Shown: positions 29,838 through 41,824, counted from the first letter of the stretch. The stretch: 64,000 nucleotides of DNA from Bacillales bacterium UBA1737 (GCA_002315915.1 DCIB01000022.1:13851-77850); one strand, 5' to 3'. A program made the numbers and translations. The notes: generated by a model not told the origin, from the letters alone.

Positions 29838-29968
29838 GAATTAAATAGTATTTATGAAAAGTAGAAGTCCCACTTCTCACCTGATTAGATTTATCTTTTG
29901 GGTTAAGAGTCATTAATTTAATAATAATGGAACAATAGTGGGCATTTTATGCTCACTTTTCTTTTTCT
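29838..29968 (+). promoter_or_regulatory. L20-type ribosomal-protein leader with intrinsic terminator (attenuator)
   Basis: Structured 5' UTR (GTAGAAGT-CCC-ACTTCTCAC hairpin) ending in terminator AGTGGGCAT-TTT-ATGCTCACT plus TTTCTTTTTCT (29937-29968), just upstream of infC. This is the position where L20-dependent attenuation operates in Bacillus. Consensus match not verified. Confidence 0.5.
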
Positions 29969-30016
29969 AAATGCTTTTAAATTCACCTTGAAATTTTTGG
30001 AGGAAACAAGTATTTA

Positions 30017-30544
30017 ATGGACAAAAAAGTCGAAAACTTGATCAATGAACAAATCAAAGCTAAATTTGTATTAGTAATTGATGAAAACAAACAACAATTA
30101 GGTAAAATGGATATTGATGAAGCTCTAAGTATCGCATATGACAAAGAGTTAGATTTAGTATGTGTAGCTCCTGATGCTGAAGTACCTGTATGTAAATTAA
30201 TGGATTATAAGAAATTCCGTTATGATCAACAAAAGAAAGCAAAAGAAGCTAAGAAAAACCAAAAAGTTGTTGAAATTAAAGAAATCCGTTTAAGTCCTAC
30301 TATTGATGTAGGTGATTTTGAAACTAAAGCAAAAGCTGCTTTAAAGTTCTTAACAGCTGGTGATAAATGTAAAATTAGCTGCCGTTTTAGAGGAAGAATG
30401 ATTGAACAAGCAGAAAATACAAAAGGATTATTCTTTAAATTTGTAGATCGATTAGGAGAAATTGCTCAAATAGATCAACAACCTATACTTGATGGACGTA
30501 ACATGTCAATGATGATTAGTCCAAAAGTTCAAAAGAAAAAATAG
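30017..30544 (+). CDS. infC: Translation initiation factor IF-3
   Basis: INEQIKAKFVLVIDENKQQLG...EIKEIRLSPTIDVGDFETK; ATG start 12 nt after GGAGGA. Confidence 0.92.
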   Translation: MDKKVENLINEQIKAKFVLVIDENKQQLGKMDIDEALSIAYDKELDLVCVAPDAEVPVCKLMDYKKFRYDQQKKAKEAKKNQKVVEIKEIRLSPTIDVGDFETKAKAALKFLTAGDKCKISCRFRGRMIEQAENTKGLFFKFVDRLGEIAQIDQQPILDGRNMSMMISPKVQKKK

Positions 30545-30780: not shown

Positions 30781-31137
30781 ATGCCACGTACAAAAGGCGG
30801 CGTTGTCGCAAGAAGAAGAAGAAATCGTGTTTTAAGAGAAGCAAAAGGTTATTGGGGATCTAAACATTTACTATTCAAGGTTGCTAACCAACAAGTAATG
30901 AAATCTCGTCAATACGCATTCCGTGATCGTAAAGTTAATAAACGTAACTTCCGTAAATTATGGATTGTAAGAATTAATGCAGCAGCTCATATGCATGATA
31001 TGAACTATTCTGTATTAATGCATGGTTTAAAACTTGCTAATATTGATATTAACCGTAAGATGCTTGCAGATTTAGCTGTAAACGATATTGCAACATTTAA
31101 TGCATTATGTGATGCAGCTAAAAAAGCTTTAAAATAG
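30781..31137 (+). CDS. rplT: 50S ribosomal protein L20
   Basis: [26 protein letters not shown]. Confidence 0.95.
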
Positions 31138-35730: not shown

Positions 35731-35759
35731 AAAGCACAATTATTATAATTGTGCTTTTT
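35731..35759 (+). terminator. Intrinsic terminator after hpf
   Basis: GCACAATTA-TTA-TAATTGTGC flanked by AAA and TTTTT. Confidence 0.7.
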
Positions 35760-35810
35760 ACATTATTTATCCGAATAATAATTTATCTAAAATATGATAA
35801 AATAAATATT

Positions 35811-36434
35811 ATGAATAATATAGAATTTAATGAGTTATTAAAAGAATTAAAAAAATCAAACACTAAGAAATCATTATTATTACATTCATGTTGTGGACCT
35901 TGTAGTAGTAGTGTATTAGAAAAATTATTACCATATTTTGATATTACAATATTTTATTATAATCCAAATATCACTCCACATGATGAGTTTCTAAAAAGAG
36001 TTAAATATCAAGAAAAAATAATCAGTTGTATATCGAAAGATATAAAAATAGTAGTTATAGATGAATCACATGATGTATATTTACAAGCTGTTAAAGATTA
36101 TACTAATCTTGGTGAAGGTAGTATGCGTTGTTATAAATGTTATGAATTCAGATTAAAGCTTGCAGCTATTTATGCATCAAATAATCATTTTGATTATTAT
36201 TCATCAGTTATGAGCGTATCACCATATAAAAATAGTGATTGGATTAATGAACTTGGTAATAAATATGCATTAGATACACCTTTCTTATATTCAAATTTTA
36301 AAAAAGAAAATGGATATCAAAGAAGTATAGAATTATCAAAAAAATTTGACTTGTATAGACAAGATTATTGTGGGTGTGAATTTTCAAAAAAAGAGCATGA
36401 GACTCGTATTTGTTCAAAACAAACTTTATCTTGA
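35811..36434 (+). CDS. queH: Epoxyqueuosine reductase QueH (DUF208)
   Basis: LLLHSCCGPCSS and DYCGCEFS Cys motifs. ATG 35811 is chosen because the track's GTG start lies inside the hpf terminator. The gene ends in TGA, with TAA 8 sense codons later. Confidence 0.8.
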   Translation: MNNIEFNELLKELKKSNTKKSLLLHSCCGPCSSSVLEKLLPYFDITIFYYNPNITPHDEFLKRVKYQEKIISCISKDIKIVVIDESHDVYLQAVKDYTNLGEGSMRCYKCYEFRLKLAAIYASNNHFDYYSSVMSVSPYKNSDWINELGNKYALDTPFLYSNFKKENGYQRSIELSKKFDLYRQDYCGCEFSKKEHETRICSKQTLS

Positions 36435-36484
36435 AAAAACGACTTCATTATGATATTATAAATAAAAATAGGAGAACACAATTT

Positions 36485-39154
36485 ATGGCTGGATTATTAA
36501 AAAAATTAATTGACCCTTCATATAAAGAACTATCAAAATGTAAAAAAATAGCTGAAGCTGTTTGTTTACTTGATGAAAAATATAGTGCTCTAAGTGATGA
36601 TGAATTAAAAAACCAAACTAATATATTTAAGTCCCGTTTAAATAATGGTGAAACTTTAGATGATATAATGATTGAAGCTTTTGCGGTTGCAAGAGAAGCT
36701 GCATATCGTGTACTAGGCTTAAAAGCATTTAAGGTTCAAGTAATGGGTGCTGCCGCAATGCATTTAGGCAATATTGCTGAAATGAAAACAGGTGAAGGTA
36801 AAACTTTAACATCTGTTTTAGTTGCTTATCTTAATGCATTAACTGGAAAAGGTGTTCATATAGTTACAGTTAATGAATATTTAGCAACACGTGATGCAAC
36901 AGAAATGGGTGAAGTTCATAAATTCTTAGGATTAACAGTTGGATTAAACTTAAGAGAATATAATTCTGAACAAAAACGTGCACAATATGCATGTGATATT
37001 ACATATTCAACTAATAATGAATTAGGATTTGATTACTTAAGAGACCATATGGTTGTTTATAAAGAAGAAATGGTTCAAAGACCATATTTAAATTTTGCTA
37101 TTGTCGATGAGGTAGACTCTATTTTAATTGATGAAGCAAGAACTCCATTAATTATTTCTGGTGGAGCAAAAGATGGACCAAATCTATATGCACAAGCCAA
37201 TTCATTTGTTAAAAGATTAGTTGAAGATACTGATTATGAAGTAGATGTTAAGGATCGTCATGTTACACTTACTCCATCTGGTATGGAAAAAGCAGAACAA
37301 TATTTTAACTTAGAAAATTTATACGATATCAAAAACGTTGAGTTACTTCATAGAATTAATAATGCTTTACGCGCTAATTATATAATGAAACGTGAAGTAG
37401 ACTATGTAGTAAATGATGGTCAAATATTAATAGTTGATTCATTTACTGGTCGAGTTCTTCCTGGACGTCAATGGAGTGAAGGATTACATCAAGCTATTGA
37501 AGCAAAAGAAGGAGTTGAAATTAAAAAAGAAACAAGAACTCTTGCTACAATAACATTCCAAAATTATTTTAGAATGTATTCAAAACTTGCTGGTATGACT
37601 GGTACTGCTAAAACTGAAGAAGAAGAATTTAGAGATATTTATAACATGTTAGTAGTAGAAATACCTACTAATTTACCAGTAATTAGAATTGATGATACTG
37701 ATTTAATATATTTTAGTGAAAAAGCAAAATATGCTGCATTAGCACAAGATATTAAAGAACGTCATTTAAAAGGTCAACCTATCTTAGTTGGTACTATTTC
37801 TATTGAATCAAGTGAATTATTATCAAGCTATTTAAAGAAACTTGGCATTCCACATAATGTATTAAATGCTAAACAACATGCTAAAGAAGCTGATATTGTT
37901 TTACATGCAGGTGAAAAAGGTGCTGTTACTATTGCAACAAACATGGCTGGTCGTGGTACTGATATTAAACTAGGTGAAGGTGTAAAAGAATTAGGCGGAC
38001 TTGCAGTATTAGGAACTGAACGTCATGAATCACGACGTATTGATAACCAATTACGTGGACGTAGTGGACGTCAAGGTGATCCAGGTTATAGTAGATTCTA
38101 TCTATGTACTAAAGATGAATTATTAATTAGATTTGGCGGAGATAGACTTGAAAGAATGTTAATGATGGCAACATCTTTACAAAATGATGGGGAAATGGCT
38201 CCTATTTCATATAAAGGATTTTCAACAGTAGTTGAATCTGCCCAAAAGAAAATAGAAGGTCAAAACTATGACAGACGTAAAAGTGTTGTTGAATATGATG
38301 AAGTATTAAGAAAACAAAGAGAAGTTATATATTCTCAAAGAAATGATATCCTATTTAATGATTCTATAGAACCAACAATTCTTAGGATGATTAATTCAGT
38401 ATCAGAAAGACAAATTCCACAATTTTCATCTGAAGATAATCCTGAATTAATTGATTCAGTTAGATTTATGAAAGAATTCGTTGTAAATTTCTTTGATCAA
38501 GGTTATTTACAAGCTAAATGTCCTAAATGTGGAAAAATAATGCGTGTACATGAAGGAATACCTACTAGATGTAATAATCCTGAATGTTTAACTCAATTTA
38601 CAGTTGTAAGAAATATTTCTGATGATGTAAGAAAATCTTCTGTTGCAAATATCAATATGTCTGATATAGAAAATAAATCTGTAGTAGATGTTATTGAATA
38701 TGTTAAAGAAATATTTAATAAAAATTTAAATATTAAAAAAAGTGATGCCGCAAATGATGTATATCAAGAATTTTTAAAAAGAAATTTATTAAGAATTGTT
38801 GATAAGCATTGGATGGAACACTTAGATCAAATGAGTACTTTACGCCAATCAGTAAGACTTCAATCATATGGACAAATTAATCCACTTCGTCAATATCAAT
38901 CTGTTGGATTTGATATGTTTGAAGAAATGATTTGTTCTATTGAAAATGAGACTGTTGCAGCAATAAACTGTTCTTATATTCCATCACAAATGGGTGAACG
39001 TGAAAAAATAGCTAAAAACTTAATTGCATCAGGTGGCTCTGCGGATGAACCAAAGAAAAAAACTGTAGTAAATACTAATAAAAAAATTGGACCAAATGAT
39101 CCTTGTCCATGTGGATCTGGAAAAAAATATAAGTTTTGTTGTGGTAAAAAATAA
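36485..39154 (+). CDS. secA: Preprotein translocase ATPase SecA (with internal zinc-ribbon insertion)
   Basis: MKTGEGKTL, DEVDSILIDEARTPLIISG, TNMAGRGTDI, and the C-terminal zinc finger CPCGSGKKYKFCCG. ATG 36485 follows AGGAG. Confidence 0.97.
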   Translation: MAGLLKKLIDPSYKELSKCKKIAEAVCLLDEKYSALSDDELKNQTNIFKSRLNNGETLDDIMIEAFAVAREAAYRVLGLKAFKVQVMGAAAMHLGNIAEMKTGEGKTLTSVLVAYLNALTGKGVHIVTVNEYLATRDATEMGEVHKFLGLTVGLNLREYNSEQKRAQYACDITYSTNNELGFDYLRDHMVVYKEEMVQRPYLNFAIVDEVDSILIDEARTPLIISGGAKDGPNLYAQANSFVKRLVEDTDYEVDVKDRHVTLTPSGMEKAEQYFNLENLYDIKNVELLHRINNALRANYIMKREVDYVVNDGQILIVDSFTGRVLPGRQWSEGLHQAIEAKEGVEIKKETRTLATITFQNYFRMYSKLAGMTGTAKTEEEEFRDIYNMLVVEIPTNLPVIRIDDTDLIYFSEKAKYAALAQDIKERHLKGQPILVGTISIESSELLSSYLKKLGIPHNVLNAKQHAKEADIVLHAGEKGAVTIATNMAGRGTDIKLGEGVKELGGLAVLGTERHESRRIDNQLRGRSGRQGDPGYSRFYLCTKDELLIRFGGDRLERMLMMATSLQNDGEMAPISYKGFSTVVESAQKKIEGQNYDRRKSVVEYDEVLRKQREVIYSQRNDILFNDSIEPTILRMINSVSERQIPQFSSEDNPELIDSVRFMKEFVVNFFDQGYLQAKCPKCGKIMRVHEGIPTRCNNPECLTQFTVVRNISDDVRKSSVANINMSDIENKSVVDVIEYVKEIFNKNLNIKKSDAANDVYQEFLKRNLLRIVDKHWMEHLDQMSTLRQSVRLQSYGQINPLRQYQSVGFDMFEEMICSIENETVAAINCSYIPSQMGEREKIAKNLIASGGSADEPKKKTVVNTNKKIGPNDPCPCGSGKKYKFCCGKK

Positions 39155-40242
39155 TGGATAAAGCTGAAATAATTAAATTATTTGATGATTATAAACAAAG
39201 AGTCAATTCATTATCACAAGTTATAAATAAAGAAGAATCATTAAAAAAAATATCTTCCTTAGAAGAAATAATGGGTGAACCAGACTTTTGAACAGATCAA
39301 CGTTCTGCAAAAAAGATTATATCAGAACTTAATTTATTAAAAGACAAAGTAAAAAAATTAGATTGTGTAATAAATCATATTGAAGAGTTTGAATTATTAT
39401 TAGAATTAAATGATGAAGAAATGTTTTCTTCATCAGATAAAGAATTAAATAATTTTGTAAAAGAATTAAATGATTTAGAAACAGAGATGCTTCTAAATGA
39501 TGAATTAGATACAAATAATGCGATAATAACACTTCATCCCGGAAGTGGTGGCACTGAATCTCAGGATTGGGCATTAATGCTTTATAGAATGTATAAACGT
39601 TATGCTGAACGTCATAATTTCAAATTTGAATTAATAGATTATGAAGACGGACAAGAAGCAGGTATTAAAAGTGCTACTTTTACAATTTCAGGTGAATTTG
39701 CATATGGTTTATTAAAATCAGAAAATGGTGTACACCGTTTAGTTAGAATTTCCCCTTTTGATTCAGCTGCAAGGCGTCATACATCATTTTCATCAGTAGT
39801 TGTTATACCTGATGTTAATGAAGAAATAGAAATAGAAATTAAAGATGAAGATATCAGAATTGATACATATCATTCTAGCGGAGCAGGTGGACAACATATT
39901 AATAAGACTGATTCTGCTGTACGACTTACACATATTCCAACAGGAATAGTTGTATGTAGTCAATCACAAAGAAGTCAAATCCAAAATAGAGAAAAAGCAT
40001 TTCAAATATTAAAGGCACGTCTTTATCAACGTGAACTAGATATTCAAGCATCTAAACGTCAAGAATTAGCTGATTCACAGAGTGAAAATGGATGGGGTAG
40101 TCAAATAAGAAGTTATATTTTACATCCTTATTCGATGGTTAAAGATCATAGAACTAATTGTGAATCTTCTAACCCACAATCAATACTTGATGGTGATTTA
40201 GATCAATTTATCGATGAATATTTACATTTTATTAAAAAATAA
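39154..40242 (+). CDS. prfB: Peptide chain release factor 2, single frame interrupted by one in-frame TGA (39289-39291) at the conserved Trp
   Basis: ATG 39154 overlaps the secA stop (TAATG). Frame 0 reads ...[20 protein letters not shown]... and runs on into the track ORF 39421-40242. It carries GGTESQDW, the SPF tripeptide (RISPFDS) and GGQ (SGAGGQH). Total 362 codons including the TGA. Confidence 0.85.
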
Positions 40243-40247
40243 CTAAT

Positions 40248-41036
40248 ATGAATGAAAATAATTTAATTTGGATAACAAAAGTAGAACAAAAAGGTAATAA
40301 ATATTTAGTTTATGTTAATGATTCAATAGAATCAATAACATTTAATTTAGATCAATTAGTTGAATATCATATAGTAAAAGGTAATTCATTTTATCCACAA
40401 GAATGGGATAAAATAATTAATAGTTTAGATTTTGGTAAAATATTAGATAAAACTCTATACTATATTGATTATAAATTTAGAACAAAACAAGAAATTATTA
40501 ATTATTTAAATAAAAATAATGTATCAATCTCGATTCAGGATGAAATAATTAATAAATTAATATCTTTAAAATATATTGATGATGAAAAATATTCTCAAAT
40601 ATATATTGAAGAAAAGATTAATTCATTAATGGGACCTAAAGTTATTAAGTATAATTTAAATTTAAAAGGTATTAATCAAAATATTTATAATCCAATTATT
40701 GATAATATAGATAGTGATGTATGGATTAATAATGCAATTTTGGTAGCAAATAAGACACTTAATACTATTAAAGGATATCCATTAAATAAACAAAAAGAAA
40801 CTGTTTATACAAGATTATCTCGTATGGGATATTCAAATGAAGTTATAAATAAAACAATATCTAAAGTTGAATATTCAACTTTAGATATTGATATATTAAA
40901 TAAACAACTTTTATTATTAAAAAATAAAGGTTTAGATAAAACAAAAATAATCTCAAAATTATTATCAAATGGTTATACATTTGAAGATTTAAAACCATTG
41001 ATTGATTTTGATAATGATCTTCAGGGTGAGGCGTAA
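40248..41036 (+). CDS. recX: RecX-family recombination regulator
   Basis: Three-helix repeat pattern (YIDYKFRTKQEIINYL...LKYIDDEKYSQIYIEEK...). The C-terminal codons overlap the FMN riboswitch. Confidence 0.7.
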   Translation: MNENNLIWITKVEQKGNKYLVYVNDSIESITFNLDQLVEYHIVKGNSFYPQEWDKIINSLDFGKILDKTLYYIDYKFRTKQEIINYLNKNNVSISIQDEIINKLISLKYIDDEKYSQIYIEEKINSLMGPKVIKYNLNLKGINQNIYNPIIDNIDSDVWINNAILVANKTLNTIKGYPLNKQKETVYTRLSRMGYSNEVINKTISKVEYSTLDIDILNKQLLLLKNKGLDKTKIISKLLSNGYTFEDLKPLIDFDNDLQGEA

Positions 41037-41200
41037 TTCCTCAACCGGTGGTTATAGTCCACGGGAATTTATAATTCATGATTTGGTGAAATTCCAAAAC
41101 CGATAGTTAAAGTCTAGATGAAAGAAGATTACTTAATATTTTAGAAGTTATTCTAAATAAGTAGTCACCTGAAAATCATATAGGTGACTATTAATATTTA
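41016..41200 (+). promoter_or_regulatory. FMN riboswitch (RFN element) with terminator-type expression platform
   Basis: GATCTTCAGGGTGAGGCGTAATTCCTCAACCGGTGGT...GATTTGGTGAAATTCCAAAACCGATAGTTAAAGTCTAGATGAAAGAAGAT matches the RFN core, with P1 ATCTTC/GAAGAT. The hairpin TAGTCACCT...AGGTGACTA (41162-41190) plus TTAATATTT precedes the RBS. Confidence 0.85.
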
Positions 41201-41209
41201 GGGGTTTAT

Positions 41210-41824
41210 ATGATTTCTAGAAAGAAAGTATTTAATTTAATTACTAAAGTTGCAATATTTACAGCACTTAGTTATTTATTCTATTTTATAAAGTTTTCAA
41301 TTCCATCAATTTTTCCATTTTTTTTGGAAATACAATTTTCTAATGTTCCAGCTATATTAGGTGGGTTAATATTAGGCCCAGTTGGTGGATCTTTAATCGT
41401 AATAATAAGATTTTTATTTAAATTATTATCTACTACTTCACTTGGAATTGGTGAAATAGTTGATTTAATTATAGGATTAAGTGTTGTATTATCTAGTAGT
41501 ATTTATTATTTAAATCATAAAACAAAAAAAGGTGGATTGATTTCGTTAATTATTGCATTTGCTGCATGGATAATTTCTGCATGTTTATTAAATGCATATG
41601 TTACATTACCATTTTATATAGATAAATTTTTTGGTGGAACTCCTAATTATTTAGAAATGATTAAAGCGTATATACCAAATGTTACGGAATCTAATTATAT
41701 GGTTTTAACAATATTCGGAATAATACTACCATTTAACGCATTACTTGCTTCAATAATATGTTTGATAACATTTATTGTTTATAAAAAAGTATCAATTGTA
41801 TTTAAAAATGATTTATTTAAATAG
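41210..41824 (+). CDS. ribU: Riboflavin transporter RibU (ECF S-component)
   Basis: About 6 TM, 204 aa, directly controlled by the FMN riboswitch; N-terminus LITKVAIFTALSYLFYFIKFSIP. Confidence 0.75.
   Translation: MISRKKVFNLITKVAIFTALSYLFYFIKFSIPSIFPFFLEIQFSNVPAILGGLILGPVGGSLIVIIRFLFKLLSTTSLGIGEIVDLIIGLSVVLSSSIYYLNHKTKKGGLISLIIAFAAWIISACLLNAYVTLPFYIDKFFGGTPNYLEMIKAYIPNVTESNYMVLTIFGIILPFNALLASIICLITFIVYKKVSIVFKNDLFK

Follow-up and report, generated by a model that had tools for sequence, protein, structure and literature searches.

A conserved in-frame UGA in prfB of uncultured low-GC Bacilli and the probable autoregulation of release factor 2 by stop codon read-through

The prfB locus and its in-frame UGA

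The gene for release factor 2 (RF2), prfB, whose product reads UGA, itself carries an in-frame UGA in a stretch of 64,000 nucleotides (nt) of DNA from Bacillales bacterium UBA1737 (DCIB01000022.1:13851-77850). This stretch, referred to here as the window and numbered from its first letter, is gene-dense and has a guanine-plus-cytosine (GC) content of 25%. The stop is codon 46 of prfB (39289-39291) and stands in the context GAC TTT TGA ACA GAT. Beyond it the zero frame remains open for 316 codons, up to the TAA at 40240-40242. The same stop recurs in related bacteria, and the model discussed below proposes that it is translated as tryptophan and serves to adjust the synthesis of RF2. The locus comprises the following features.

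36410..39154, + strand: secA, with the SecA domains of Pfam and a TAA stop codon at 39152-39154.
39154..40242, + strand: complete prfB (RF2) frame, with 362 sense positions if codon 46 is decoded, then TAA at 40240-40242; it aligns end to end with B. subtilis RF2.
39154..39288, + strand: open reading frame 1 (ORF1), the 45 codons before the stop (MDKAE...MGEPDF), which form the N-terminal part of RF2 domain 1; its length of exactly 45 codons is shared by each of the 14 sequenced relatives and by 35 distinct ORFs from databases.
39286..39294, + strand: proposed recoding site UUU UGA ACA, made up of the Phe codon for the ribosomal P site, the UGA (39289-39291) and the A at position +4 (39292); TGA and the +4 A are present in 14 of 14 lineages.
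39292..40242, + strand: rest of RF2 in the zero frame (remaining domain 1, SPF, GGQ and the TAA), as indicated by the Pfam domains PCRF and RF-1, the motif coordinates and the ratio of nonsynonymous to synonymous substitution rates (dN/dS).
39421..40242, + strand: ORF of 273 residues reported by gene callers (P0001), with a start ATG that is not conserved and no Shine-Dalgarno (SD) sequence before the ATG.

The protein obtained by reading through codon 46 scores 498 bits with the prfB model TIGR00020 (cut-off 370) and 273-280 bits with the RF1 models, under their cut-offs of 400-423. Pfam identifies in it the domains PCRF (PF03462) and RF-1 (PF00472), and the motifs GGTESQDW, SPF and GGQ are encoded at 39547-39570, 39751-39759 and 39886-39894. 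In a HMMER alignment the TGA occupies the column of the Trp in the sequence PEFWNDQ of B. subtilis RF2 (PDB 9fy1/6szs; stretch ...MADPEFWNDQQKAQT) and therefore sits on a Trp position. The two other Trp codons of the gene, 139 and 314, are TGG. The window prfB contains no CTTTGAC shift site; the site reads GAC UUU UGA ACA, and the +1 frame entered at the TGA ends at the TAA at 39338-39340. These properties had been described in an earlier, sequence-only reading of the window, which placed the TGA on the RF2 Trp, noted the absence of the classical frameshift site, saw a +1 shift close at that TAA and found no SD sequence ahead of the ATG at 39421. The description proved accurate on all these points, and the ATG at 39421 is in addition not conserved in relatives. 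The 273-residue ORF is an annotation artefact of the in-frame stop and does not represent a conserved start.

The TAA of secA and the ATG of prfB overlap by one base (...AAATAATGGAT), which suggests that translation of the two genes is coupled in the window. The adjacency of secA and prfB is conserved in relatives.

Recurrence of the stop in a clade of Bacilli

The evidence is comparative throughout and comes from contigs and loci of clade members, the GC content of which is 25-32%. The window prfB was assembled identically from two independent sequencing runs, SRR5323933 and SRR1221442. At the DNA level, 14 divergent prfB genes, including that of the window, have TGA as codon 46; their pairwise RF2 identities go down to 56-60%. 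The sequence-only reading had proposed to look for the stop at the same column of prfB orthologues, and there it recurs in 13 other divergent lineages. The TGA-bearing loci include L003, L004-7, L088, L089 (NCBI GCA_965339485.1), L090/91 and L092/93, and the same site is carried by L009, a species-representative metagenome-assembled genome (MAG). Many of the closest database proteins are N-terminally short (257-299 residues) and are encoded beside a 45-residue ORF that directly follows secA. Four full-length relatives displaying a W (P0002, P0004, P0006 and P0016) were rejected as TGG relatives: they are products of gene calling with genetic code 4, and their DNA reads TGA.

A degenerate DNA pattern that allowed either TGA or TGG retrieved six metagenome contigs from JGI. 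The three low-GC contigs have TGA; the three with TGG are distant and have a GC content of 39-53%, and in at least two of these the reading frame is interrupted upstream of the Trp column, which is what a frameshift-type prfB would look like. The codon could be predicted from the protein context, FW[ST][DN]Q indicating TGA (P0016, P0006) and FWDD indicating TGG (P0024), and all three predictions were correct. A profile search with ORF1 yielded 35 distinct proteins of 45 residues on about 189 contigs, every one of which ends in Phe45; one of them is named by NCBI 'hypothetical protein IKT40_00900 [Bacilli bacterium]'. The more divergent ORF1s P0166, P0172 and P0174 came to light when 1.8 billion cluster representatives were searched exhaustively with HMMER. 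P0174 (45 residues; four contigs, Logan and ENA) ends in ...LNDEF and, judged by eye, resembles a TGG sister group (P0182 type, 'VLNID...') more than it does the TGA clade; in this lineage a stop at codon 46 may have arisen a second time, independently. Taken together, the sequence data are consistent with a single origin of the codon-46 TGA. The clade consists of uncultured low-GC Bacilli, classified only as 'Bacilli bacterium' or 'Firmicutes bacterium', and some sample labels hint at an origin from rumen or gut.

The codon preceding the stop is TTT in 13 of the 14 genes and TTC in one, the base that follows (+4) is A in all 14, and the next codon is always ACN or AGT, encoding Thr or Ser. 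In TGG relatives the residue after the Trp is mostly Asp, Asn, Gln or Leu; a few have Ser, with the codon unchecked. The genuine TGA terminators of the same loci are followed by T in 8 of 13 cases and by A in 5. A UGA followed by A has been reported as a context especially prone to misreading by tRNA-Trp (PMC5289835). The UGA-ACA of the window is shared with the coat/A1 read-through site of phage Qβ, which reads UAU UGA ACA (GenBank AY099114).

As an outgroup, 77 RF2 loci from across the bacteria were taken from the matches listed in a scan of a genome collection with the full protein; most are distant (47-55% identity). Among these 77 listed matches the Trp column reads TGG in 76, the exception, L009, being a member of the clade, and most of the outgroup loci listed possess the CTTTGAC frameshift site. 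In four Veillonella loci (L014, L015, L019 and L026) CTTTAA, and no CTTTGAC, precedes the Trp column; this may be a frameshift site of a TAA type or a chance occurrence. The nearest TGG relatives are low-GC MAGs labelled 'Bacilli bacterium', for example L104 and L035, and these lack a CTTTGAC site. L104, the closest TGG relative inspected, has the same synteny and the same N-terminus (MEKFEI...) as the clade members. In a neighbour-joining tree of the catalytic region, all sequences with a verified TGA, all truncated sequences and all those with FW[ST] group in a single clade, which amounts to about 32 clusters at 90% identity and is embedded among TGG relatives devoid of any frameshift site. 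P0120 and P0044/L100, which seem to break this pattern in the tree, are contigs of chimeric origin. L100 (JAEIGA010921679.1) is a short chimera in which the 5' part of prfB comes from the TGA clade and the 3' part has a different origin; in P0120, likewise short, the 5' part of prfB stems from another lineage and the 3' part again has a different origin. Short metagenomic contigs of prfB call for caution.

Two further observations on relatives deserve mention. P0187, P0189, P0192, P0195 and P0211, which start with MENYEI..., have Tyr in the Trp column (DFYND, SFYSD), so that Trp is not strictly indispensable for RF2. The most divergent prfB with the TGA, P0006 (L103 2621-3718), lies beside a transposase of the IS110 family and not beside secA; the sequence around its SPF motif is unusual (RLSPFNANNLRQTSF), and the Trp of NGWGSQ is absent (NGFGSQ).

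Translation past the stop and competing explanations

Both sides of the stop are under purifying selection. Between closer pairs, dN/dS is 0.2-0.6 for codons 1-45 as well as for codons 47-88, and 0.05-0.2 for the remainder, the catalytic part (0.05-0.30 over all pairs compared). The proportion of synonymous differences (pS) between lineages amounts to 0.3-0.7, and synonymous sites are thus near saturation. It follows from dN/dS values below 1 on both sides that both flanks are translated and that the TGA has outlasted the near-saturation of the neighbouring synonymous sites. In each of the 14 genes, a stop codon is reached within 2-20 codons in the +1 and -1 frames (4-20 codons for +1 alone). 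A +1 slippage on U UUU GA was rejected, since no lineage has an open +1 frame and the site of L103 reads TTC TGA, in which the run of U is interrupted and cannot slip.

Recovery of a protein by starting anew downstream was rejected as well for want of a conserved start codon. Re-initiation yielding a shortened RF2, or two separate polypeptides without read-through, would agree with the downstream starts placed by gene callers, which give proteins of 257-299 residues. Arguing against this is that the first in-frame ATG past the TGA lies 22 to 96 codons on, depending on the lineage, is not preceded by an SD sequence and in five lineages lies beyond GGTESQDW, and that the stretch from the TGA to these starts is open, in frame, under purifying selection and alignable to RF2 domain 1. 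We regard this explanation as very unlikely. Sequencing or assembly error and a decaying pseudogene, of both of which a lone in-frame stop is the usual hallmark, are refuted. The window sequence is identical in two independent assemblies, 13 further lineages, stemming from different studies and assemblers, share the stop, it is the only stop and always at the same codon, no further lesions are found, and dN/dS of the catalytic part is low. The same facts remove the error or private nonsense mutation that the sequence-only reading had entertained as one of its three options. UGA is also the codon for selenocysteine, and Cys can be misinserted at UGA, but decoding as selenocysteine or another residue different from Trp is highly improbable: the column holds Trp and not Cys in 76 of the 77 relatives among the matches listed, and RNA folding provides no support. 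A consensus fold reveals no conserved structure near the site (-0.27 kcal/mol, no covariation), the z-score of the window fold at the site is -0.77, and no Rfam family, including the selenocysteine insertion sequence (SECIS), matches the region of the prfB site. The sole recurring 'hairpin', UUGA...UCAA, has 4 bp and is too weak to count; its pairing arises because the codons for F-stop-[ST]-D-Q are conserved.

If UGA were ambiguous or partly reassigned throughout these genomes, being read everywhere by a dedicated or altered tRNA (tRNA-Trp(UCA), or tRNA-Trp(CCA) with a 4-bp anticodon stem), the TGA in prfB would be a by-product of a drift towards code 4 and not a selected sensor. The setting lends itself to this idea: these are Bacilli of very low GC content, the relatives of their prfB include an Acholeplasmataceae locus, several contigs were assigned code 4 by automatic gene callers, and a tRNA-Trp(CCA) with a 4-bp anticodon stem occurs in diverse bacteria and is linked to a reduced use of UGA as a stop (PMC13092985). 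Stop and Trp codons were counted in non-overlapping ORFs, which under code 11 cover 91% of the window. Of the 60 ORFs, 47 end in TAA, 11 in TAG and only two in TGA (28480-29079 and 35751-36434), and these two are extended by only 2 and 8 codons to the next in-frame TAA or TAG, which would suit such a drift. Over seven loci of the clade, however, TGA terminates 13 of 127 genes, and it interchanges with TAA and TAG in orthologues: for a YlqF-type GTPase, a haloacid dehalogenase (HAD) hydrolase and QueH, the TGA ends match the TAA or TAG ends of the orthologues within a few residues. L092 ends 6 of its 15 genes in TGA, prfB included; compared with 2 of 60 in the window, this shows that members of the clade differ widely in how often they terminate genes with UGA.

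As a sense codon, TGA is confined to prfB. In five clade loci with approximately 39,600 codons and 250 TGG, no mid-gene TGA other than that of prfB was found, and the remaining in-frame TGAs of real genes are found only at the outermost 5' or 3' end of the stop-to-stop frame. The 14 TGA-bearing prfB genes contain 34 further Trp codons, all of them TGG. The sequence-only reading had correctly noted that every other Trp in the coding sequences of the window is TGG (113 TGG codons in the 60 ORFs, with no other mid-gene TGA). The traits of genetic code 4, namely TGA at many Trp columns, TGA no longer in use as a terminator and prfB lost, are not seen in the clade, in which prfB is present and strongly constrained. 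Judged from these gene ends and Trp codons, the genetic code of the clade is standard and UGA is a genuine terminator. A drift to code 4 would moreover spread TGA over many Trp sites and flip codon 46 to and fro. For these reasons a general reassignment appears unlikely, and the second option of the sequence-only reading, an onset of UGA capture by Trp with RF2 being disabled, is not supported in view of the TGA-terminated genes, the TGG codons elsewhere and the constraint on the catalytic part.

A simpler possibility would be a leaky stop that is tolerated and has no regulatory role. TGG would have been converted to TGA under AT pressure, by a single transition along the compositional bias, basal read-through would suffice, and the stop would persist by inertia; UGA is naturally leaky in Firmicutes, and no dedicated stimulatory element was found. 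Yet with third positions near saturation, the TGA is invariant in 14 of 14 genes and the end of ORF1 in 35 of 35, the sole gene affected is the one whose product reads UGA, and the residue after the stop has shifted in step with it, from Asp, Asn, Gln or Leu in TGG relatives to Thr or Ser (ACN/AGT) in the TGA lineages. We consider this explanation distinctly improbable. Selection for a sensor is supported because the TGA lies exactly on the Trp codon and only in the gene whose product recognizes UGA. The remaining option of the sequence-only reading, a zero-frame read-through sensor, is the only one of its three that fits a conservation of the TGA that is clade-wide, site-specific and gene-specific, with the feedback being the part that we infer.

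We think it likely that prfB of the clade is expressed by programmed zero-frame read-through of the UGA at codon 46. The conserved in-frame UGA, the need to decode it in the zero frame, the UGA terminators elsewhere and the conserved UGA-A are the observations from which the model starts. Ribosomes would translate the 45 codons, in the window probably coupled to the translation of secA, and arrive at UUU-UGA-A, where RF2 and Trp-tRNA would compete. When RF2 is plentiful, it would terminate at codon 46, the ORF1 45-mer would be released as the product and no RF2 would be made. When RF2 is scarce, the ribosomal A site would stay empty for longer, Trp would be inserted and full-length RF2 would be completed. 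The net effect would be a negative feedback that follows the logic of the CUU-UGA-C +1 frameshift without a change of frame. The decoder would most simply be the ordinary near-cognate tRNA-Trp(CCA), with a C-A mismatch tolerated at the third position. We infer that Trp is the inserted residue because other RF2s have a conserved Trp at that column; which tRNA inserts it, how efficiently this happens and how it responds to the level of RF2 are likewise part of the proposal. Such a circuit would be compatible with what is known from other bacteria. In PMC7918605, citing Karow (1998), basal UGA read-through in B. subtilis is given as about 6%, rising to 19-54% with prfB mutations that impair RF2. 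Read-through of TGA in E. coli inserts mostly Trp (PMC11126739), and over-expression of RF2 without autoregulation caused a growth defect in B. subtilis (PMC12421855).

Several points weigh against the proposed read-through. Given the kinship of the lineages, the 14 occurrences of the TGA do not count as 14 independent events, and P0017 (FWDD), which falls within the clade, may have TGG. The +4 A is common by composition at 25% GC and follows 5 of the 13 genuine TGA terminators. There is no conserved stimulatory structure, which leaves only the short context and low levels of RF2 as possible sources of a high read-through efficiency. The UGA could be decoded by tRNA-Trp(CCA), by its variant with a 4-bp anticodon stem or by tRNA-Trp(UCA); ARAGORN found no tRNA genes in the window or in the 14 related loci. 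A second copy of prfB may be present elsewhere in the clade genomes.

Annotation, neighbouring elements and known systems

Public gene calls split prfB of the clade, an essential gene, into a 45-residue 'hypothetical protein' and a truncated RF2, as in the window (39154-39288 and 39421-40242) and among L001-L007 and L088-L095; in other pipelines, short contigs are switched to code 4, which gives a full-length call. In JGI, some of the 45-residue ORFs are labelled 'peptidoglycan hydrolase CwlO-like protein'. This systematic error in the annotation of prfB can mislead predictors of genome completeness and of the genetic code. Two RNA elements lie elsewhere in the window.

41013-41133, + strand: flavin mononucleotide (FMN) riboswitch RF00050 (97.8 bits), directly upstream of an S component of an energy-coupling factor (ECF) transporter at 41210-41824.
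29853-29970, + strand: ribosomal protein L20 leader RF00558 (63.5 bits), upstream of ORFs at 30017-30544 and 30781-31137.

The ECF transporter is probably a riboflavin transporter under the control of FMN, and the two ORFs downstream of the L20 leader are presumably infC and rplT.

An RF2 read-through sensor was considered before the gene had been sequenced and, according to the 2016 review of recoding by Atkins and colleagues, is absent from known bacterial genomes (PMC5009743). A survey of more than 12,000 genomes published in 2025 reports no such case of read-through; it states that the frameshift motif is missing from Mycoplasmatota genomes in which prfB is retained and suggests that autoregulation may be unneeded there (PMC12421855). 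No description of a read-through prfB was found in the literature searched. From the comparative evidence it is on balance probable that the clade provides the first natural example of RF2 autoregulation by programmed zero-frame UGA-to-Trp read-through, which would have evolved in uncultured low-GC Bacilli after loss of the ancestral +1 frameshift. If this is true, the feedback design proposed before prfB was sequenced is realised in nature, and cells that possess RF2 and UGA terminators decode UGA as Trp at physiologically useful levels, which is the 'ambiguous intermediate' needed for the reassignment of UGA to Trp in the related Mollicutes. It would be a second, independent solution to one control problem and thereby argue that RF2 homeostasis itself is under selection. 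The site would also offer a compact natural cassette for UGA read-through, with a context of about 10 nt.

The closest known system is the classical programmed +1 frameshifting of prfB at CUU UGA C, located at codon 26 in E. coli (Craigen & Caskey; surveyed in PMC12421855). The two have in common the gene, an early in-frame UGA that only RF2 reads and, under the proposed model, a short ORF1 terminated by RF2 and the passage of ribosomes when RF2 is scarce. They differ in that the clade lacks CUU-UGA-C and an internal SD sequence and that its RF2 stays in the zero frame, the +1 frame closing after 4-20 codons. The UGA of the clade is found some 20 codons beyond the position of the classical one and takes the place of a Trp sense codon instead of standing between two frames, and its passage requires decoding of the stop and not slippage of the P-site tRNA.

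The coat/A1 gene of Qβ is a bacterial system with zero-frame read-through of a UGA, which there is decoded by tRNA-Trp at about 5%; it shares the UGA-ACA with the window. Like the site of the clade, it has no downstream structure that is known, and what is inserted at its UGA is Trp (PMC7026636 Table 1). Qβ forms a minor, C-terminally extended protein at a fixed ratio, whereas in prfB of the clade only the read-through product would be functional, the stop lies inside a conserved domain and the gene's own product terminates at it. The code of table 4, used by Mycoplasmatales and several endosymbionts, resembles what is proposed for the clade in the reading of UGA as Trp in low-GC Bacillota. 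The table 4 lineages, however, have dispensed with prfB and with UGA as a terminator, and they encode Trp mainly by TGA; the clade keeps RF2 and UGA terminators and has a sense UGA only in prfB.

The only parallel to a read-through sensor is the release factor of Mimivirus (PMC5009743, PMC3521657). The class-I release factor gene of Mimivirus and Megavirus passes an internal stop by read-through combined with a frameshift, which the authors interpreted as autoregulatory (PMC3521657). The viral protein is of the eRF1/aRF1 type, acts in a eukaryotic host and depends on two recoding events; the clade has a bacterial RF2 and would need a single read-through. In plants, the read-through circuit of eRF1 reportedly acts at the normal stop codon. 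According to PMC5397192, plant eRF1 is autoregulated by read-through together with nonsense-mediated decay (NMD). The eukaryotic circuit includes NMD, a pathway that bacteria do not possess, but in the plant mRNA, as proposed here for prfB, the level of a termination factor is sensed by read-through in its own message.

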